DNA from: Candidatus Buchananbacteria bacterium CG10_big_fil_rev_8_21_14_0_10_33_19 | GTDB lineage: Bacteria > Patescibacteriota > Patescibacteriia > 2-01-FULL-39-33 | Reading direction: 5' to 3' | DNA: 64,000 nt | Assembly: GCA_002773855.1 (NCBI GenBank) | Contig: PEZY01000012.1 | Coordinates: forward strand, 297,613 to 361,612 | Shown: in pieces, positions 4,870 through 39,700 of the stretch | Layout: the number at the start of each line of letters is the position of its first letter | Position numbering within the stretch: the stretch's first letter is position 1 | Made by a program: the position numbers and the translations under genes | Notes under the pieces: model-generated | What the model saw: the letters and a program-made list of their open reading frames with translations, nothing else | What the model was told of the DNA's origin: nothing | Databases searched by the model: none

Positions 4870-6309
4870 ATGACTCATGGAAAATTAGCTAAAAATACCT
4901 TCTTTTTTACTATATCATTGGCTATTCAAAAGGCCATATCTTTTTTGTATTTTATTTTAATTGCTAGGGCTGTCAGTGTTGATGATTTAGGTAAATATTC
5001 ATTTGCTTTGAGTTTTGCTACGATTTTTTCTATGTTTTTGGATTTTGGTACGACTCAAATATTGGTTCGTGAAAGTGCCCGTAAAAAAGAAGACTCCCAA
5101 AAGTATTTATCTAATGTTCTGGGTTTTAAATTAATCGTGTCGGTTTTTGTCTATTTGTTAATTGTCACAGCGGTTAATTTAATGGGCTATCCAGAAATTA
5201 CTAAACAATTAGTGTATGTGACTGGCCTAGTCATTGTTCTTGATTCATTTAGTATCGCATTTTACTCAGTGTTAAGGGGTTTACAGAATTTAGTTTTTGA
5301 AAGTCTCGGTGTGATTGTTAATCAAATTATTTTACTTAGTTTGGGTTTTGTAGTTTTACAATTGAACTTAGGTTTAGTGGTTCTGATGAGTGTTTATGTG
5401 GTTGGTACTTTATTTAATTTATTTTATTCCGCTGCTTTGTTAAGTTTTAAATATAAGGTTTTTCCTAAGCCAGATTTTTCTGCTAGTTTAATTTTAAAAA
5501 TTTTAAAAATATCATTGCCGTTTGCGATTGCTGGAGTTTTTGTAAGATTATATTCCTATATGGATGTAATTATATTATCTAAATTAACTAATGATGAGGC
5601 GGTTGGTATATATAGTGTGGCTTATAAAGTAACATTTGCCTTGCAGTTTATTGGTGTGGCTTTTTCGGCGGCTATTTATCCAGCTTTTTGTAATTATTTT
5701 GTTTCTTCAAAGGAGATGTTAGCGAAAAGTTTTACTAAATCAGTTTATTATTTATTAATTATTTCCATGCCACTTTCAGTGGGAATTATTACTATTGCTG
5801 ATAAAGCGATAGTGCCAATTTTTGGTGCTGGTTATAGTGAAGCGATAGTGCCATTGCAAATATTAATGGTGTCATTAGTAATTATATTTTTAGCCTTTCC
5901 GGTCGGTGCTTTACTTAATGCTGCTAACAAGCAAACTGCTAACACCGTAGTGTTGGGCTTCATCGCTTTATTTAATATAGTCGCTAATTTAATATTAGTA
6001 CCAATGTTTAGTTATAATGGAGCAGCTTTAGCCGCACTTTTAAGCTACGTGTTGCTATTCTTTATTGGTTTGATTTTGGTTGGTAGTGTAATTAATTATG
6101 ATAAAAAATATCTTTTAATTTCAGCTGTTAAAATAATAATTAGTTGTGTGGCGATGGGATTTTTAGTGATTTTCTTAAAAGAAAGGTTGCATTTTATGAT
6201 AGTTATTCCGATTGGGGCCTTGGCTTATTTTGTGGTTTTATATGTTACCAAAGGTTTCACTCAAAACGATATATTTCAACTTAGGGATTTGTTATTAAAA
6301 AAAACTTAA
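4870..6309 (+). CDS. polysaccharide biosynthesis protein / Wzx-like flippase (MOP superfamily)
   Basis: About 12-14 TM helices and the N-terminal pattern typical of PST-family flippases. Confidence 0.7.
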   Translation: MTHGKLAKNTFFFTISLAIQKAISFLYFILIARAVSVDDLGKYSFALSFATIFSMFLDFGTTQILVRESARKKEDSQKYLSNVLGFKLIVSVFVYLLIVTAVNLMGYPEITKQLVYVTGLVIVLDSFSIAFYSVLRGLQNLVFESLGVIVNQIILLSLGFVVLQLNLGLVVLMSVYVVGTLFNLFYSAALLSFKYKVFPKPDFSASLILKILKISLPFAIAGVFVRLYSYMDVIILSKLTNDEAVGIYSVAYKVTFALQFIGVAFSAAIYPAFCNYFVSSKEMLAKSFTKSVYYLLIISMPLSVGIITIADKAIVPIFGAGYSEAIVPLQILMVSLVIIFLAFPVGALLNAANKQTANTVVLGFIALFNIVANLILVPMFSYNGAALAALLSYVLLFFIGLILVGSVINYDKKYLLISAVKIIISCVAMGFLVIFLKERLHFMIVIPIGALAYFVVLYVTKGFTQNDIFQLRDLLLKKT

Positions 6310-21839: not shown

Positions 21840-22799
21840 TTATTGTCCACTGTGAAATTTTTTGTGAATATCTTTTAATTTTTTATTAGTAACATGCGTA
21901 TATATTTGAGTGGTGGCAATATTGCTGTGGCCTAGTAATTCTTGGACCGATCTTAGATCAGCGCCTTGATCTAATAAATCAGTGGCGTAGCTGTGTCTAA
22001 GGGTGTGAGGTGTAGCGTCTACTGGTAGACCAGCCATAACAGTATATTTTTTTACTAAATTTTCAATTGATCTAGACGATAGTCTGTGGTCATCATCGTT
22101 ATTATTGCGACTATAGTTGATAAACAGGGGAGTTAACATGTCATTTCTGGTCTTAAGGTATTTTGAAAGCCATTTTAGGGATCGATTGGAAAAATAGATA
22201 GTTCTAGTTTTGCCACCCTTACCATTAATAACTAATTCCTGGTCAGTGAACTTATTTGTAATCAGGTTATTGCGATTAAACTGCTTAACGTTAAGCGAAG
22301 TTAATTCTGAGACCCGGATGCCAGTAGAGAAGAGTACCTCTAGTATGGTTCTATCTCTTAAGCCATCAGGCTTAGATGTATTTGGCATATTTAACATTTT
22401 TTCAATTTGTTCAAAATTTAAAAATTTAATTGATTTATCTTTATCAGTTAATTTTGGTAATTTTATTTTGTCAGAGGGCAGTGAGATGATATCTTTGTCA
22501 GCTAAATAATTTAAGAGTATTCTAATGGCCCTTAAATAATAGCTTTGAGTAGTCTTTTTAATCCGTTTACCCTTATCATCCTGTTTACGTGATAAATAGA
22601 GTCGGTAGTCCCAAATATGGTCTGTAGTGAGCTCGTGGGGCTTGATATCAACTAAGTCATGATCCTTAAGCCAGTTTATAAACATTTTTAGAAAGTTATG
22701 ATAATTACGGGTTGATACTGGACTCAGGCCCTTTTCAACCTCACAATAGTCTAGGAAGTTAGGGATATGTTTAATTAGTGGAATATTAGATTTTTTCAT
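21840..22799 (-). CDS. tyrosine site-specific recombinase, XerC/XerD family
   Basis: Catalytic R (TGIRVSEL), HTLRHSYAT, and GHSNIATTQIYTHV (H..Y) motifs. Confidence 0.9.
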   Translation of the reverse strand: MKKSNIPLIKHIPNFLDYCEVEKGLSPVSTRNYHNFLKMFINWLKDHDLVDIKPHELTTDHIWDYRLYLSRKQDDKGKRIKKTTQSYYLRAIRILLNYLADKDIISLPSDKIKLPKLTDKDKSIKFLNFEQIEKMLNMPNTSKPDGLRDRTILEVLFSTGIRVSELTSLNVKQFNRNNLITNKFTDQELVINGKGGKTRTIYFSNRSLKWLSKYLKTRNDMLTPLFINYSRNNNDDDHRLSSRSIENLVKKYTVMAGLPVDATPHTLRHSYATDLLDQGADLRSVQELLGHSNIATTQIYTHVTNKKLKDIHKKFHSGQ

Positions 22800-32965: not shown

Positions 32966-32989
32966 AAAAACCGCTCAAATGAGCGGTTT
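32962..32989 (-). terminator. Hairpin plus T-run whose T-tract overlaps the pheS start codon
   Basis: aaaccgctc-aaat-gagcggttt; minus-strand T-run. Confidence 0.5.
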
Positions 32990-33004
32990 AATAGTAAAAG
33001 TCAA

Positions 33005-33385
33005 TTATATTCTTTTTTTATAGCTTAAAAAGAAAAATTCTAAAACCACAACAGCGGCTACTAACAGGATGGTATTTAAGATATTTAACATTTTGGCACC
33101 TTGCAAGATTAAAATACTATCTACTAATAAAGCAAAGAAAAATGATTGCCTAAAAGAGGTGCCAACAATGCTGTATTCCAAGGAAAATTTATTGAAGGCT
33201 TTTCGAAAAGCAAAACTGGCTAAAAAGAAAGTGCCAAGGAGTGAAAATAATAAAGTTAAATAAAACAAAAGAAAACCAAAAAAATCAGTTTCGAAAGGAT
33301 TAATTTGTGAAACAATAGAAATCCAAATCACCCAGAATAAAATTGTAGCACAGGAAACAACGGTTAATAATTGCTTGATGTTCAT
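33005..33385 (-). CDS. hypothetical membrane protein
   Basis: 3 TM helices; TGcTATAAT extended -10 upstream at about 33425. Confidence 0.45.
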   Translation of the reverse strand: MNIKQLLTVVSCATILFWVIWISIVSQINPFETDFFGFLLFYLTLLFSLLGTFFLASFAFRKAFNKFSLEYSIVGTSFRQSFFFALLVDSILILQGAKMLNILNTILLVAAVVVLEFFFLSYKKRI

Positions 33386-33435
33386 AAAAAAAAATAATTT
33401 TATGTTATTAATTCTATTATAGCATAATTATTTGG

Positions 33436-33469
33436 ACAAATAAAAATCCCGTCGGTAAAGACGGGATTT
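33436..33469 (-). terminator. Rho-independent terminator closing the left end of the GC-rich island
   Basis: aaatcccgtc-ggtaaa-gacgggattt, a 10-bp perfect stem, with a minus-strand T-run. Confidence 0.65.
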
Positions 33470-33803
33470 AGAGAAGGGTGAACTGGAATGTTGTGAAACT
33501 GTATTTGAGAGAGAATCTCCAAACTAAAGTTGGAGAAATGCAATTTACAACATACCAGCATGAAATCCTTCCCTCAGTGAAAAATTATAGCACCCCTAAA
33601 AAATACAATCAATCTTTTTTTTAATTTTTCTGTGGATAAAAAAAATCTCTTCCATTGCGCCGTTAAGTTTCTAAAAATACTTAGACACTTAACGGGGAAA
33701 AAGAAGAGAGATTTTCTAGTCCTAAGACTTTAACTTCCCCGGTCAAATTAATAAGTTAATTATTAATTTGATTAGGGAGAGGAAGTATCAATGACGCCTC
33801 CTC

Positions 33804-34037
33804 TCAAATGGTTTCGACTGTGATCAGTGCCGCTTCGCTTTTTCGAATGGCAATGACACTATCATAAATTTTAAGGCGCATAGGGTCACCTAGTGGAGCA
33901 AAGCCTAAAACTTCAATCCCCGCTCCCTCAATGAAGCCCATTTCTAGTAGTCGTTGAAAGACAGCAAATACTGTTTCTTTTATTTCTACGACTATACAAA
34001 ATTGGCAGGCGTGTAACTTATCTAGAGTGGTGGTCAT
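33804..34037 (-). CDS. feoA: FeoA-family protein (orphan; no feoB present)
   Basis: RLLEMGF.EGAGIEVLGFAPLGDPMRLKI....IAIRKSEAALITVE matches the FeoA SH3-like consensus. Confidence 0.7.
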   Translation of the reverse strand: MTTTLDKLHACQFCIVVEIKETVFAVFQRLLEMGFIEGAGIEVLGFAPLGDPMRLKIYDSVIAIRKSEAALITVETI

Positions 34038-34105
34038 AATATAAAACCTCTCTTAGATGATGAGCGGGCTGACAGATTGGATCTGCAGCCCGCTAAATGT
34101 TGGGG

Positions 34106-34324
34106 TTAGACAGCTTCGGGACGAAGCTGTCTCATGAAGTCGAAGCAGTCAACTGCTCTGTCCTCAAGGACATCGGAGCGATGTACTGGACAACGAGAGC
34201 ATGGCGACGTTTCGTCTTCACAGATGAGTCCGCGTTGCAGAATTTCTTCTGCGGACAGCGTCTCCAATTCTGACATGGGATGGGCATGAGGACAATCCTC
34301 ACATTCGTTATGACACATGGCCAT
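34106..34324 (-). CDS. small Cys-rich protein (CxxxCxxC..CxxC), C-terminal DCFDF motif
   Basis: ORF in the GC-rich island; its 3' end is encoded by a perfect hairpin at 34109-34131. Confidence 0.35.
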   Translation of the reverse strand: MAMCHNECEDCPHAHPMSELETLSAEEILQRGLICEDETSPCSRCPVHRSDVLEDRAVDCFDFMRQLRPEAV

Positions 34325-34385
34325 AGCATTTCTCCTTATTCGGTTGCAATTGATCTAGTCCGAGAAATTCGGGCTAGTAAAAGAG

Positions 34386-34568
34386 CTACTGGGGATATTC
34401 CATTTCAGGGAAATGGAGGTCGAAACAGTCTGGACAATAGCCATGGCTAATGTCTCTCCTACCTTCGACGGACTGCTCTGTCCATGAGCCGTCAGTTTGA
34501 CGAACCTTTTTACATACGCAACATTGAACTACCATTGATGTACCTCCATAGTTGAATTTTCCCCACAA
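34386..34568 (-). CDS. small zinc-ribbon-like protein (CCVC...CPDC), C-terminal DCFDL motif
   Basis: ORF in the GC-rich island. Confidence 0.35.
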   Translation of the reverse strand: MWGKFNYGGTSMVVQCCVCKKVRQTDGSWTEQSVEGRRDISHGYCPDCFDLHFPEMEYPQ

Positions 34569-34648
34569 CGATACGAAGCAAGTTTGAACAAAATGGTCGG
34601 TCTCTTATAATATATATTTATTTGTACCGGTTTTGTCAAGTTTGCTTG

Positions 34649-34670
34649 TTAGTAGACCTACTAGTAAATA
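34649..34670. repeat. Inverted-repeat arm L (ttagtagacctactagtaaata)
   Basis: Partner arm at 34795-34819; about 17/20 of the aligned positions match the reverse complement. Confidence 0.5.
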
Positions 34671-34794
34671 TTTTTTGTTTATAAACTTTTATAATTTTGA
34701 GATAAATTTTTCAAATAATCTTTGCGGTTTAGAGGTTCTAAATTAAAAAGATTTTTGGAAATTTAGTCGAAATTTATAAGTTTTAACAAAAAGG

Positions 34795-34819
34795 TATTTA
34801 CTAGTGGGTCTACACCTAG
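34795..34819. repeat. Inverted-repeat arm R (tatttactagtgggtctacacctag)
   Basis: Reverse complement of arm L; the 120 bp between them is AT-rich. Confidence 0.5.
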
Positions 34820-35006
34820 CATGTCCCTCCTTCGTATCGGCGTGGAGAAAATTCTCCAATCGCCAGTTCATTAGAACAACTAATAGAGGATGACTGATGA
34901 AAAATAGATTTCATAAGGCCCTATTATGGTTGTGACCCGAAACATATAATTCGTAATTTGTTCCCTCCCCTATATGATTGTTCTAAAATAAATTTAATGT
35001 ACTCTT

Positions 35007-35120
35007 CAAAACTATCCCGTCAAATTGATTTCAATTCCCTCATAATTAACATTTTCTGGAATATTCTTTTTTAACAAGATAGTTTTGAGGAGAAATCTTT
35101 ATGGTTATTATGATTTCTCC
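35007..35120 (-). ncRNA. Structured repeat element, copy A (long-range helix plus terminal GC hairpin); strand tentative
   Basis: 5' arm caaaactatc pairs with 3' arm gatagttttg; hairpin ggagaaatc/gatttctcc. Confidence 0.4.
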
Positions 35121-35289
35121 AGATTTTGCTGGCGAGTATTATTTTCAAGTGGCATCCTCTACTGGTTGAAAAATAGTAGCCCTTTTCTCTAAATACGCAG
35201 ATCAGGCCACCAACTACTCGATAAGTGTGTAAAATTTTACCGTAACGAACTTCTAATAACTCTGATTGTGACATCTCACTATCCTCCAT
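35071..35289 (-). CDS. questionable small ORF overlapping copy A of the structured element
   Basis: From the ORF track; its C-terminus is encoded by the hairpin region. Confidence 0.15.
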   Translation of the reverse strand: MEDSEMSQSELLEVRYGKILHTYRVVGGLICVFREKGYYFSTSRGCHLKIILASKIWRNHNNHKDFSSKLSC

Positions 35290-35300
35290 GGTTTTTTACC

Positions 35301-35420
35301 AGAACTATCCAGTCAATCGATTTTATTCCCTCCTTTGTATTTTTTATAAATCAAGAAATGGAACCCTCATATTGACAAGATAGTTTTGGTGAGGAGCACG
35401 AGTTCAATGTCGTGCTCCTC
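35301..35420 (-). ncRNA. Structured repeat element, copy B
   Basis: Arms agaactatccagtcaat / attgacaagatagttttgg; hairpin gaggagcacga/tcgtgctcctc. Confidence 0.4.
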
Positions 35421-35427
35421 TGTATCT

Positions 35428-35631
35428 TTACCTCCACGGTTGGTGGTAAAGACATGTTCCGTGGTGTTCGCGCATCATAAACACCACGGAAAGGTCCATT
35501 GACAATTTTCTGGCTACCTTAACAGCCCCAACAAAACTGTCAAATACATAGATAAAGTCTATGCAATCGCAGGTGTAACCAAATACTGTATACATAAATT
35601 TCTCCTCTCGTTGTTGAAATGTACTACCCAA
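35428..35631 (-). CDS. small Cys-containing ORF (likely start MYTVFGYTCDCIDF...), preceded by copy C of the structured element and a GAGGAG Shine-Dalgarno
   Basis: SD gagaggag 8 nt upstream of the internal Met; shares the GYxCDCxDF motif with ORF 34386-34568. Confidence 0.3.
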   Translation of the reverse strand: MGSTFQQREEKFMYTVFGYTCDCIDFIYVFDSFVGAVKVARKLSMDLSVVFMMREHHGTCLYHQPWR

Positions 35632-35733
35632 AACTATCTAGCCAATCCCGTAAATCCTCTAAATTGATTTAAGTAGAATCAGCAGATTAGCGAGATGGTT
35701 TTGGGAGGGGCTGGACATCACAGGTCCAGCCCC
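35629..35733 (-). ncRNA. Structured repeat element, copy C
   Basis: 21-nt arms cccaaaactatctagccaatc / gattagcgagatggttttggg; hairpin ggggctggac/gtccagcccc. Confidence 0.4.
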
Positions 35734-36736
35734 AGAAAGGTTGAGTGCGCATGGACAACACACCCAAGAATGAAGATTGTCGGATCAAAGATCCTTATCA
35801 GGGCGACGCATCTAGATAACTAGCTGCCGCCCTTATAAGGAGCTTCGAATCTTTTTAACAAGAGATTAAAAGATTCACTCCCTTAAAACAAAAGAACCCT
35901 GGTTGGAGAGAGAGGGTTCCTTTGCGGTGACCACTATAATAAATATACTGGTGGTTTTTTCTCTCTCCTTATTGTGCTAGCATTATATCATATAACAGTA
36001 ATCTTGTCAAGTATATTGCTGGTTTTTTGCTAAAAATTAGCTAAAATTAGCTAATATTATAAACTTGTCAATATGATAAAATTGTGATGTAATATAGTTT
36101 TATGAAATTTAGTTACTTAGTATTTCTTATATTCGTTATTCAATGAGTTATATATCTTATCTCTTTCTATCTGTTACTTTTGTACCGCCAAAAGTAACCA
36201 AAAGCTCGCAAACGTAAAAAATCATGGCAATTTTATATCAGCTCGCTAGAGCCAATTAAACAAAACAGCGACCTAATAATTGTCTCTAACGCTCGCCTTG
36301 ATATAAAATTGACACAATATTTTTTAATGTTTGCATTTTTTATAATAAATATATAAATAAATTCGAGCATATGAAAAATTAAGTAGAAAAACAATAATAA
36401 ATTAAGCGTTTGTGAGTTGTCTACGAACAAATTTTTCGCATGTCTGAGCCATTTTCGACCTATCTAAATAAATAGAAAATGGTGAGTTCGGAAAATAGCG
36501 AAGATTTATTATAGTTTTTCCTTAATTTTATCATCGCTCGTAGTTTTTGTGTTACTTTTTGCTATCAAAAAGTGACGAGAAAAGTTATTAAAAAATGAGA
36601 TTGCTTCTTACCTCGCAATGACGTTTGTAGATGGAGTGTAAAGTAATAGAAATAAAGAAAATAATCTCTCTACCTCCCCCACCCGTATAGTTGCGGTCGA
36701 TATGACATGATAAAATAAAATAAAATTATAGATAAA

Positions 36737-36765
36737 AAAGACTAGTCATATGACTAGTCTTTTAA
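36737..36765. terminator. Perfect palindromic hairpin; bidirectional terminator downstream of the helicase-nuclease gene
   Basis: aaaagactagtcatatgactagtctttt. Confidence 0.65.
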
Positions 36766-36773
36766 AAGCATAA

Positions 36774-39700
36774 TTACGCTTTATGTTCACAAATACTGTT
36801 AAAGTCACAATAATTACACATCATCCCTGGTTTTGGCGGAAATTCCGCTTGTTTAATACCCTCTATATTTTTTATTAACTTGGCTTTGGTTTTTTCTAGT
36901 TCTTTGGGCGTACCCAGGAAAGAAACTTCTTTATTGTCATCTAAATAATGAAAAACCAATTCTTTGACGGGTTCTTTTAATACCTCTTCTACGGCCATTT
37001 GATAGATTAATAGTTGTTCTTTGTTATCAAAAGTTAATTTATCTTTAGCACTGCCGGTTTTATAGTCTACAATTCTGACTCCCCCATCTACTTTGTCTAT
37101 CCTATCGATCACACCATAAAGAGTAAAATTTTCTAAACCATTTTGAATATGTAAATTAAATGGATATTCTAAATACATAGTTTTGGGCCAATTGTCTTTA
37201 TTTTGTTCATAAAACTGTTTTAGAGATTTTTCACCTTTGATCCGGTATTTTTCTTTGGTGTCTCTGTCTGGAAACCAATCATCAATAAAAGATTCTTTAT
37301 AAATTTTGGCCATATCCTCCCAGTCGACATCTTTTTTGTCATGACTAGGTATTAATTCTAATTGACTAGGATTAATTCTTTTACTAACTAGTTCTAAAGT
37401 TTTTTGTAGACTGTTATGCATAGTGCGACCAAAAGAAAACTGTGGTTTACCTGGAGTCGGCACTTTTAAAATAAATGAAAACCGATACTGATAAGGACAA
37501 GTTTCAAAAGCTTTTAGTCGAGTAAAAGAAAATTTAGCTGGGAGCTTTGGCTTGATTTCTTCTTGGTAGTTTTTATTTTTAATGTCTTCTGATTCAATTG
37601 AGGTTTTAACCGTTTCCGATAAGGTTAAACCAATTGGTTTAAGTTCTTGGATAAATCTAGATATTTTTTTGGCTCTAGCCCCACCATAGTTCTCAGCCGA
37701 TGAAAAATATAAATTACTTTTGGCTCTAGTCATCGCCACATAAAATAGGCGTCGCTCTTCCTGAAGATGAATATCGCACTCTGGCACAATCTCTTTAATT
37801 AATTTGTCTGGCAAGCTAATGGCTTCGCCTTTGGCGGTAGTGGGAAATCTTTTGTCTACCATATTAGGTAAAAAGACGCATTCAAATTCCAAACCCTTGC
37901 TGGCATGAACGGTCATAATTTTTACCGTGTCAGGATCATCAGATTCGGTAGTTGATTTTAAGCTACCCTCTTCACCAGACTCTAATTCTAATTCTATTAA
38001 GTTCAAAAAACTTTTTACTGATTTATCACTGCTTTCTTTTTCAAAGTCTTGAATTTTTTTGAAGAATTGATTTAAATAGGCTAACTCCTCTAGATTTTTA
38101 GTAGAGTCTATAGTAGTTAAAGATTTAAGATAGCCAGATTTATCCATAAAGCCCTGAATGATTTCGGTAGTGCGTTTACCACTGGCGGCTATTTCTGAAA
38201 AATGATTGATTAATTTCATAATACTGGTAACTTTTTGTTGAGTGTCACCACTTATAACTTTTAATTCACCAGCTTGGCGTAGAGATTCATAAAGTGATAC
38301 ACCTTTGCGTCCGGCCCAATAGTTAAAATTCATTATTTCTTTGTGTGGTATATTCCAAAGTGGCATCGAAATAAAGCGGTACATAGCGACACTTTCGTGA
38401 TAACTATCTAGGAGTTTTAGGAAAGCTAGAATATTTAAAATAATATTTTTGGCATAAAGTCCTTTGGAAGCTAAGAAGTTATAAGGCACTTTGGCTTGCT
38501 CTAGGGCGTAGATAAATTCATTAGCACTAGAATTAGCTCTAATTAGAATAGCAAAATCAGACCATTTTAGATTTTCATTTTTATTATAAATATCAATTAT
38601 TTTATCAACTACCAATTTCACTTCGTCTTCTAAATTTTGACCATGAAGATGTTCTATTACTCCCTTTTGAGAATTATTAGCTAAAAGTTTTTTGGATAAT
38701 TTATTCTTTTTTTGATTGCCTTCGGCTAATTTTATCTCTAGACGGTATGGATTATTTAATTGAATGAATTGATAAGTTAAATCCAAAATATTTTGAGCGC
38801 TACGATAGTTGGTATTTAAAAATACTTCTTTAGCACTAGTATAGTCACTTTTAAATTGTAAGATGTTAGAGATAGAAGCACCCCGAAATTTATAAATCGC
38901 CTGATCGTCATCACCGACTACCGTGACATTGTTTTTGGGACTAGCCAGTAATTTAATTAATTCGTATTGAGCATAATTAGTATCTTGAAATTCATCAACT
39001 AAAATATATTTAAATTTAGCTCGATATTTAGCTAAAACATTTTTACGCTCGATAAAGAGTTTAAGTAAATAACTAATTAAATCGCCAAAATCCAAAGCAT
39101 TATTATCTAGTAGTAGTTGCTGATAGGTTTTGTAAGCTTTAGCTGTTTCTTCTAATTTTTTTAGTTCTTGGGCAATGGCTTGGTTTAATTCCTCGGCTTC
39201 TAATTCCTCCATAGCTTCTGGTTCCAGTAATTCGGCTGCTAATTTTATTTGGTCGTTGATAGTTAAAACGCTATCAACATATTTTTGATAATCTTCTGAA
39301 GTAATATTTTCGTCTTTGGCTCGAGAAAAATGTCTGAGTAAGTTATGAATGTATTTAGTAGGATTGCCTAATGGTTTGTAATAATCAATATCAAATTTAG
39401 ATAAATTGTTTTTTAACAGCATCCACTGACCAGTAGTTGAGAGTAATTTAAAATCAGTTGGCAAGCCAATTTCTAAACCATTTTCTTTTAAAATTCTTTC
39501 AGCAAAAGAATGGAAAGTAGAAATCCATAAATCAACATAACCATAGGGTAGTAGTTTATCAACTCGTTCTTCCATTTCACCAGCGGCCCTGTCAGTAAAA
39601 GTGAGGGCTAGTATTTCCTCTGGCTGACATTTGCCTTGTTCAATTAAATAAGCAATGCGACTGGTAATCACTGTAGTTTTACCGGTACCAGCTCCAGCTA

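Follow-up and report, generated by a model that had tools for sequence, protein, structure and literature searches.

The stretch of DNA analyzed here (the window) comprises 64,000 nucleotides (nt) of contig PEZY01000012.1 from Candidatus Buchananbacteria bacterium CG10_big_fil_rev_8_21_14_0_10_33_19. Between a gene encoding a UvrD-like helicase-nuclease and a gene encoding a membrane protein of 126 amino acids (aa), located beside pheS, lies a gene-poor region that carries a repeated, hairpin-forming element. Reading of the sequence from 33000 to 37000, together with a repeat finder, revealed exactly three copies of this element, A (35005-35120), B (35298-35420), and C (35627-35733), at the places given in a first-pass annotation of the same DNA, whose coordinates are slightly refined here. 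On the minus strand, which is the gene strand, the copies alternate with small open reading frames (ORFs); a promoter, a leader, and a hairpin domain precede them, and a structured RNA domain follows (Table 1). The same layout in gene direction, namely the UvrD-like gene, a gene-poor stretch of 1.4-4 kb, the 126-aa gene, and pheS, was found in nearly all relatives that have the locus. Over 33300-36800, twelve public loci of the same strain, which come from six or more contigs, agree at 100% identity and show no variation (two of them reach only their contig end, at about 36200), and the public gene calls on these contigs leave 34325-36773 empty.

The loci used for comparison, all oriented as the minus strand of the window, are syntenic loci from related Falkowbacteria of the candidate phyla radiation (CPR). 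They were fetched via homologs of the 126-aa protein, whose identity to that of the window is 90% in L155, 85% in L157, 83% in L156, 73% in L158/L159, 64% in L160, 60% in L174, 54% in L176, and 53% in L175. L164 and L168 were added by scanning metagenome contigs with a specific two-arm pattern, and L177 was added via a homolog of one of the proteins encoded between the elements.

Table 1. Features of the locus in the window, in gene direction (SD, Shine-Dalgarno sequence; bp, base pairs).
Feature	Position	Strand	Description
Sigma-70 promoter	35982..36010	-	TTGACA-17-TATAAT with TG extension; 12/12 consensus matches
Leader	35885..35975	-	invariant GGAGAGAGA (also given as ACAAUnnGGAGAGAGA), covarying hairpin, intrinsic terminator
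Hairpin domain (module 5)	35777..35854	-	GGGCGG...GUnAUC loop...CGCC; upstream boundary of the array
Clamp hairpin C	35707..35733	-	GGGGCUGGAC, 7-nt loop, GUCCAGCCCC; 2 nt 5' of element C in gene direction
Element C (type C)	35627..35704	-	78-nt imperfect hairpin, arms CCAAAACCAUCUCGCUAAUC / GAUUGGCUAGAUAGUUUUGG
Cassette C-B, putative 55-aa ORF with SD	35428..35595	-	orphan; internal 11-bp perfect hairpin
Clamp hairpin B	35391..35420	-	perfect 11-bp stem; 1 nt 5' of element B
Element B (type B)	35298..35389	-	92-nt extended hairpin
Cassette B-A, small protein gene	35071..35274	-	'RYGK..LHT..G..VF.E.G' family; homologs in L155, L160, and L164
Clamp hairpin A	35089..35120	-	GGAGAAAUC, 14-nt loop, GAUUUCUCC; 0 nt from element A
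Element A (type A)	35005..35088	-	84 nt; 19-bp basal stem including 3 G-U pairs; conserved loop GAAUAUUCCAGAAA...AGGGAAUUGAAAUCAAUUU
Structured RNA domain (module 7a/7b)	34553..34977	-	conserved; bounds the array downstream and precedes the Zn-ribbon, Cys-rich, and FeoA genes
126-aa membrane protein gene	33005-33385		beside pheS

Every copy in the window consists of a perfect GC-rich hairpin, the clamp, and an adjoining imperfect hairpin, the element proper, with a gap of 0-2 nt between the two. The inverted repeats reported for A, B, and C by the repeat finder have arms of 19-23 nt that are at least 79-89% complementary, with 37-53 nt between them, and the six arms have CAAAACTATCynGyCAAT in common. 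In the family as a whole the imperfect hairpin measures 75-92 nt, and its basal stem of 19 bp is near-invariant, with CCAAAACUAUCUUGyyAAU paired with AUUrrCnnGAUAGUUUUGG. Stem length is 19-22 bp, and the interruptions are symmetric 1x1 or 2x2 mismatches, without bulges. At least four types (A, B, C, and D) can be told apart by the upper part of the element, each kept across genomes. The clamps of A, B, and C are unrelated to one another in sequence (GGAGAAATC, GAGGAGCACGA, and GGGGCTGGAC). The first-pass annotation had described both a long-range helix in each copy and a perfect GC-rich hairpin beside it that differs from copy to copy, and both are confirmed. The loop blocks that it considered common to all copies, ATTGATTT and TTCCCTC, are present in A and B but not in C, which has another loop type and another block order.

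The family sits at one chromosomal place, between the UvrD-like gene and the 126-aa gene beside pheS, in ten loci of related Falkowbacteria, among them L155, L157, L158/L159, L160, L164, L168, L174, and L177. The number of copies per genome ranges from 0 in L175 to 4 in L157 (C inverted, B, C, and A), with 2-4 per array in most genomes. A single element is present in L174 (type A) and in L160 (a divergent type, X), two are present in L158 (B and A), and three each in the window and L155 (C, B, and A in both), L164 (B, D, and A), L168 (C, C, and A), and L177 (C, A, and B). When metagenome contigs were scanned with the two-arm pattern, every true match lay within this same locus. The covariance-model search that the first-pass annotation had suggested was carried out with a model (R1) built on 18 family members; in the window it returned three matches only, A, B, and C on the minus strand, at 72-80 bits and an E value of about 1e-13, and no copy outside 35005-35704. 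A weaker fourth copy had been proposed at 33560-33600 and a partial one at 35850-35900. Both scored as noise (R1 sites 33572-33636, 7.4 bits, E 2.2, and 35887-35925, 7.1 bits, E 2.5, respectively); the former belongs to a unit resembling a small RNA (sRNA) and the latter to the leader terminator. Looser patterns were also tried and set aside. A gapped version gave 120 stretches on the genome contigs, none with extended arms, which we regard as chance matches, and the matches on viral contigs were coding sequences repeated in related viruses only.

The paired structure of the element is maintained by compensatory change. In a set of 18 distinct copies, pairing of the 19-bp arms amounts to 92.7%, and 6 of the 19 pairs are changed on both sides. 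Neither the pairing nor the covariation score was reached by any of 500 shuffles, and sliding the partner arm by 1-3 columns lowered pairing to 30-47%. The T-A to C-G exchange noticed earlier between copies B and C is real, as columns 16/81 are CG in 10 copies and UA in 8, and L160 has CAGAGC/GCUCUG where the others have CAAAAC/GUUUUG. In alignments made separately for each type, the whole element forms an extended hairpin. The type B alignment, drawn from six genomes, holds 36 pairs, among them several G-U pairs that are invariant or nearly so, and an apical stem that covaries, UUGUU/AACAA in L158 being replaced by AUCUC/GAGAU with a GCAA loop in L164.

Sequence is conserved as well. The helix arms are kept in sequence beyond pairing alone, and type A has loop nucleotides that do not vary among seven genomes, even in the relative with 60% identity. 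Between the window and L155, element A is 100%, element B 97.8%, and element C 92.3% identical, whereas the neighboring coding and non-coding DNA is 72-88% identical and a Zn-ribbon ORF only 55%. The family is real and under selection. To our knowledge it is also undescribed; the Rfam comparison left the elements without a match, and nothing relevant was found in the literature searched. The earlier suggestion of a novel repeated non-coding RNA element stands, given its selected structure, its real covariation, and the absence of a match to a known RNA family.

The two strands differ markedly in folding. On the minus strand, A, B, and C folded better than dinucleotide shuffles with z values of -5.6, -9.5, and -6.9, exceeding the plus-strand result. 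Model R1 gave 78.2 bits on the minus versus 46.6 bits on the plus strand for element A, 79.6 versus 48.7 for element B, and 71.6 versus 55.4 for element C, and the minimum free energies were -24.6 versus -13.7 kcal/mol for A and -27.6 versus -21.3 kcal/mol for C. Over the family, R1 scores the gene strand 20-30 bits above the opposite strand, and the gene strand folds 4-13 kcal/mol better than its complement in 16 of 18 copies, the exceptions being an inverted copy in L157 and the element of L160. The arms contain 29 G-U pairs on the gene strand versus 6 A-C mismatches, and invariant or near-invariant G-U pairs occur on that strand in each type, including the type C alignment. The minus-strand reading of the first-pass annotation was thereby borne out by better folding and higher R1 scores, and we conclude that the structure is selected on the minus strand, most likely as RNA.

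Conserved RNA hairpins of this kind might act in trans or titrate a protein. The excised hairpins would then work through their conserved loops, for example through SD-like GGAGGGAAU motifs, and the small genes between them would be passengers. The retention of type-specific loops down to the 60%-identity relative, the stronger conservation of the elements than of the neighboring genes, and the presence in L158 of two elements without an ORF between them are all in keeping with such a role. No target was identified, however, an inverted copy is tolerated, and copy number and type order vary freely, with zero copies in L175, and we consider a role in trans improbable.

We also considered that the palindromes might be selfish local repeats comparable to MITE, REP, or ERIC elements, multiplied in a tolerant, highly transcribed spacer and kept paired only to spare the host RNA. 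The terminal inverted repeats (the near-invariant arms of 19 nt), the variable copy number, and the occurrence of both orientations agree with this explanation, as does the gene for an IS200-like Y1 transposase found at this locus in L156. It nevertheless appears quite improbable for elements that are not dispersed, with no further copy in the window and all true metagenome matches in the locus, and that are under purifying selection stronger than that on the neighboring genes. No target-site duplication is visible in the flanks read, those of the window and L155, and the GC hairpins, unrelated in sequence, are likewise not dispersed. The GC hairpins considered alone as a dispersed REP family were rejected for the same lack of sequence relationship; of the perfect GC-containing hairpins with a stem of at least 9 bp in the whole window, 8 of 9 fall in the locus (32968-35733).

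Examination of the DNA between the elements revealed a recurrent unit, which we call a cassette, composed of an SD, one or more ORFs, a GC hairpin, and an element, all in one orientation and with the clamp 0-2 nt from the element (L157, L164, L168, and L177). L157 has four unrelated ORFs of 84, 48, 80, and 187 aa; all of them have an SD, and after each comes a GC hairpin, ahead of an element. The cassette ORFs are mostly unrelated to one another, and searches against Pfam gave no family for them except a weak ankyrin match. Their GC content of 0.39-0.52 is mostly above that of their loci (0.33-0.44).

The content of the array differs even between the window and L155, whose flanks are 83-87% identical. 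In the window, C and B are separated by a segment of 238 nt that holds the 55-aa ORF and hairpin B, and L155 has an unrelated 38 nt there. A stretch of 70 nt including hairpin C is missing from L155, so that element C has no clamp in that ortholog, while clamp hairpin A is 97% identical there. The two loci cease to be homologous precisely where the arms end on their outer side. Among the more distant relatives, the 187-aa gene is flanked by C and A in L157 and by A and B in L177, and the homology of this gene starts right after the upstream 3' arm and stops near the stop codon. An ORF for a Zn-binding protein (50-64 aa) is followed in L168 by type C and in L177 by type A, and the order of types is permuted, being C-A-B in L177 versus C-B-A. 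Since the same genes are found beside different element types and the order is permuted, cassettes and element types have been shuffled relative to each other between genomes. Duplicated type-C copies flank one cassette in L168, one recent copy is inverted relative to the genes (L157, 4601-4677), and element A or B may precede a non-coding domain in place of an ORF. The elements are the intercistronic joints of a strain-variable cassette array, and their position is as much downstream of one ORF as upstream of the following one.

This arrangement bears directly on the proposal of the first-pass annotation that the copies are paralogous leaders or riboswitches for small Cys-containing ORFs. In its support, the structure on the minus strand is conserved, with conserved unpaired nucleotides, and B and C are indeed followed by an SD and an ORF within 20-35 nt. 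Copy A, which had been placed 5' of a small ORF in the same manner, precedes a conserved structured RNA domain that is non-coding. The downstream ORFs differ between genomes, are mostly unrelated orphans, and are interchangeable, with the same gene beside different element types. Because there is no constant gene association, regulation in cis of the following small ORF is largely refuted, and it is the least probable of the explanations that we weighed. There is also no expression platform, as no U-tract terminator follows the element and the next SD lies 15-35 nt outside it, and one copy is inverted. The Rfam searches gave only sub-threshold matches to generic hairpins for the elements, and two tRNAs were the only features in the window to attain the Rfam gathering score.

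In the window itself, the gene of the RYGK family in cassette B-A (35274->35071) is a real gene. When the sequences of the window and L155 were read against each other, four synonymous and two conservative codon differences were found. L155 has another C-terminal frame, and the true C-terminus of the protein probably lies earlier than the stop at 35071. A homolog search with this protein gave three spurious matches to large repetitive proteins, which were discarded. The 55-aa ORF of cassette C-B, searched against 5.8 billion proteins, matched the identical sequence alone. Because this ORF is an orphan with an 11-bp perfect hairpin inside it (35458-35490), its coding status is doubtful, and it may be non-coding. 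The stretch before hairpin C was tried as a remnant of the 80-aa cassette of L157 and rejected, as the DNA alignment score was 19 while shuffles gave a mean of 18 and a maximum of 26.

Small sequence features of the elements and clamps were also inspected. A promoter in the 3' arm (TTGACn-16-TACATT) fits A and C and is not conserved in the orthologs inspected, and a three-codon mini-ORF in the same arm (TTG-nnn-nnn-TAG) is missing from types D and X and is merely arm sequence; both were rejected. Likewise rejected were the GC hairpins as intrinsic terminators, since the gene strand continues with CCAAAAC and has no U tract, and only hairpin B was flagged, on the plus strand. The clamps at 5279-5315 and 6002-6038 in L157, 6079-6107 in L168, and 538-566 in L177 have a common base, GGGGAG...CUCCCC, with very different upper stems and loops. 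Two L157 clamp hairpins have the same loop despite unrelated preceding ORFs.

The exchange of cassettes at hairpin joints is suggestive of an integron. The elements might be attC-like sites that fold as single-stranded DNA and are acted on by a tyrosine recombinase, either the Xer-like enzyme encoded 11 kb away or one encoded elsewhere, so that the array would resemble a CALIN (cluster of attC sites lacking integrase) and the RNA structure would be a by-product. As in integron attC arrays and CALINs, where imperfect palindromes of 60-140 nt are repeated, palindromes of 75-92 nt ending in ...AAC and GTT... here separate unrelated, mostly orphan, promoterless ORFs that point one way behind a strong promoter, and the cassettes vary between close relatives at a fixed locus with conserved flanks. 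The placement of one gene between different elements in L157 and L177, the permutation of C-A-B and C-B-A, the type-C duplicates around a cassette in L168, the inverted copy, and the cassette GC content of 0.39-0.52, mostly above the 0.33-0.44 of the loci, also fit this explanation.

Although attC-like sites are the main rival to the reading that we favor, we consider them unlikely. The length of the elements, 75-92 nt, is within the span of attC sites (about 57-141 nt). An IntI gene beside the array defines a complete integron, and a CALIN is by definition without integrase; here no integron integrase was found near the array, whose neighbors are the UvrD-like helicase-nuclease and small genes, and the sole tyrosine recombinase of the window (21840-22799) is Xer-like, scoring 100 bits with the IntI model against a cut-off of 265. 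The boxes are CCAAAAC and GTTTTGG rather than RYYYAAC and GTTRRRY, and only the AAC and GTT triplets fit. Unlike attC sites, the elements have neither an unpaired central spacer nor extrahelical bases, their internal loops are symmetric, and they are accompanied by an extra GC clamp. ORFs are not tied to an element type, the 187-aa gene being followed by A in L157 and by B in L177. The loop sequences, unneeded by attC sites, are kept across genomes, and the favored strand is the coding strand, whereas attC sites recombine as the bottom strand. Our search of the literature on integrons or attC in Patescibacteria or the CPR found nothing relevant. Type C and the L160 element hold GCCAATCC(C/G)GT, which we take to be similar to the sfx core of the R64 shufflon; this similarity was not used in weighing the explanations.

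The reading that we favor, tentatively and with slightly less than even confidence, is that the elements are intercistronic RNA punctuation, serving processing or insulation and providing a 3' clamp, with the repeated arms doubling as recombination joints. One long minus-strand transcript from the promoter at 36010->35982 would pass the leader with its terminator and then the modules between the cistrons. The stem of about 20 bp would be the site for an RNase III-type, double-strand-specific endonuclease or for a sequence-specific binding protein and would separate and insulate the cistrons. The upstream message would then carry the clamp hairpin at its new 3' end and be protected by it, and the type-specific loops would probably bind a further factor. 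Strains would gain, lose, replace, and permute their cassettes at the repeated arms, which would serve as the joints.

A stem of about 20 bp between cistrons is the classical form of an RNase III-type substrate, and the stems of 19-22 bp found here between ORFs agree with the length of such a site (about two turns, roughly 20 bp). RNase III sites in phage T7 and in rRNA and polycistronic operons similarly have, between cistrons, a stem of about 20 bp interrupted by small internal loops, and they leave a hairpin at the 3' end of the upstream product. They differ from the present elements in that the conservation of arm and loop sequence here exceeds what RNase III needs and in that cleavage here is a prediction.

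Several considerations weigh against RNA punctuation. The transcription of the array, its processing, and the nuclease are all inferred from the DNA. RNase III requires double-strandedness and not sequence, and because the sequence conservation of arms and loops exceeds this need, the near-invariant arms and conserved loops imply an additional, sequence-specific partner. In the inverted copy of L157 (4601-4677), the gene strand has A-C mismatches in place of the G-U pairs. An RNA function alone does not explain the precise exchange of cassettes at the outer ends of the arms. The strand asymmetry, moreover, is also compatible with folding of the minus strand as single-stranded DNA, because G-T pairs are tolerated in single-stranded DNA hairpins too and because the gene strand is the G-rich strand, such strands usually being lagging-strand templates.

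Shuffling at the arm boundaries might come about by site-specific recombination at the folded elements, in the manner of an integron, to which we assign a rather low probability, or by homologous exchange between the repeated arms. A broader proposal, that the locus is a new cassette-capture platform in the CPR in which small genes are swapped at hairpin joints without an integron integrase, the joints being both folded-DNA recombination sites and RNA punctuation under an attenuator-controlled promoter, is in our view unlikely. The occurrence of two hairpins 0-2 nt apart, repeated along a long transcript that starts with a terminator, presumably recalls put of phage HK022, with its two adjacent stem-loops. 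Processive antitermination of this kind would re-arm RNA polymerase through the cassettes. The clamp sequence is variable, though, and few terminators are visible inside the array, so that a put-like role appears very improbable.

Two further groups of repeats invite comparison. The REP/BIME, ERIC, and Correia elements of enterobacteria and Neisseria are imperfect palindromes of similar size that lie inside operons and fold in mRNA, occur in either orientation, and vary between strains in their presence at a site; they are co-transcribed and affect mRNA processing and stability. Unlike the present family, which is confined to one locus as a tandem array with cassettes, they are dispersed in tens to hundreds of copies. 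In the NIMEs of Neisseria and the pdif-module arrays of Acinetobacter plasmids, as here, interchangeable modules form mosaic arrays and are delimited by short inverted repeats, but the repeat sequences and the recombinases are different ones, and no dedicated recombinase was identified here. The locus resembles both integron arrays and intercistronic palindromic repeats and is a member of neither.

Because CPR genomes are tiny and have little non-coding DNA, a hairpin-rich region of 2-3 kb that has a strong promoter and undergoes gene turnover between close relatives is unexpected. The locus is a tractable setting in which to study the acquisition and expression of new small proteins by these episymbionts. 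Should the joints recombine, the system would be integron-like but would use other sites and another enzyme; should they act as RNA only, they would represent a new class of module for intercistronic processing or insulation, one whose sequence is unusually strongly conserved.

The array is embedded among further conserved features. A TTGACA-17 promoter lies upstream in L155, L157, L158, L168, L174, and L175 (with TATAAT) and in L160 (with TATAGT), and in the window the single promoter at 36010->35982 would drive the whole array. The leader is present in the window, L155, L157, L158, L164, and L168 and was not found in L174 and L175; its alignment over five loci contains 22 pairs, of which 5 are changed on both sides. 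The loop of its terminator, CUCUCUCUCC, is complementary to the 5' motif of the leader and could pair with it, and the leader could be an attenuator or an sRNA of about 95 nt. Module 5 was found in all nine loci, including the element-free L175, with 25 pairs and 9 of them changed on both sides. The first 100 nt of the downstream domain, module 7a, have 27 pairs over seven loci, 9 of which are changed on both sides, with a closing helix AUAGGGGA/UCCUCUAU and conserved GGGAACAAAUUA and GGUCACAACC..AGGGCC. The second domain, 7b, has a long-range helix between 34554-34578 and 34830-34854 (GCCGAUACGAAGGAGG / CUUCGUAUCGUUG). Like the element family, these three neighboring RNA domains, modules 5 and 7a/7b among them, had no match in Rfam. 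Module 7a/7b may be a metal-related regulatory RNA, for which we regard it as a candidate.

Within the second RNA domain of the window and L155 is a 160-nt palindrome (34652-34813) with arms of 33 nt that are 82% complementary. It is missing from L157, L158, L160, and L164, and L168 and L177 have other inserts at this place. The genes that follow the domain on the minus strand (33804-34568) encode a Zn-ribbon protein of 49 aa, a Cys-rich protein of 72 aa, and a FeoA-domain protein of 77 aa, and have a GC content of 0.46-0.48 versus about 0.30. No FeoB gene is nearby; the first two genes of this islet are kept in relatives, and FeoA only in some.

Farther downstream, 33440-33612 on the minus strand is occupied by the sRNA-like unit, with a promoter (TTGATT-17-TGcTATAAT), about 140 nt beginning GAGGGAAGGA, and a terminator (33469->33444). 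The unit is kept in all relatives, including L156 and L175. Because the length of the small ORF within it is not conserved, the unit is probably an sRNA or the leader of the 126-aa gene. In L156, an IS200/IS605-type Y1 transposase gene (37-465), at the contig end, stands directly upstream of this unit and replaces the array. At the other end of the locus, the DNA from the UvrD-like gene to the promoter (36000-36770) is AT-rich and contains short direct repeats, gctaaaattagctaaaattagctaat, and one same-strain contig ends there, at about 36200.

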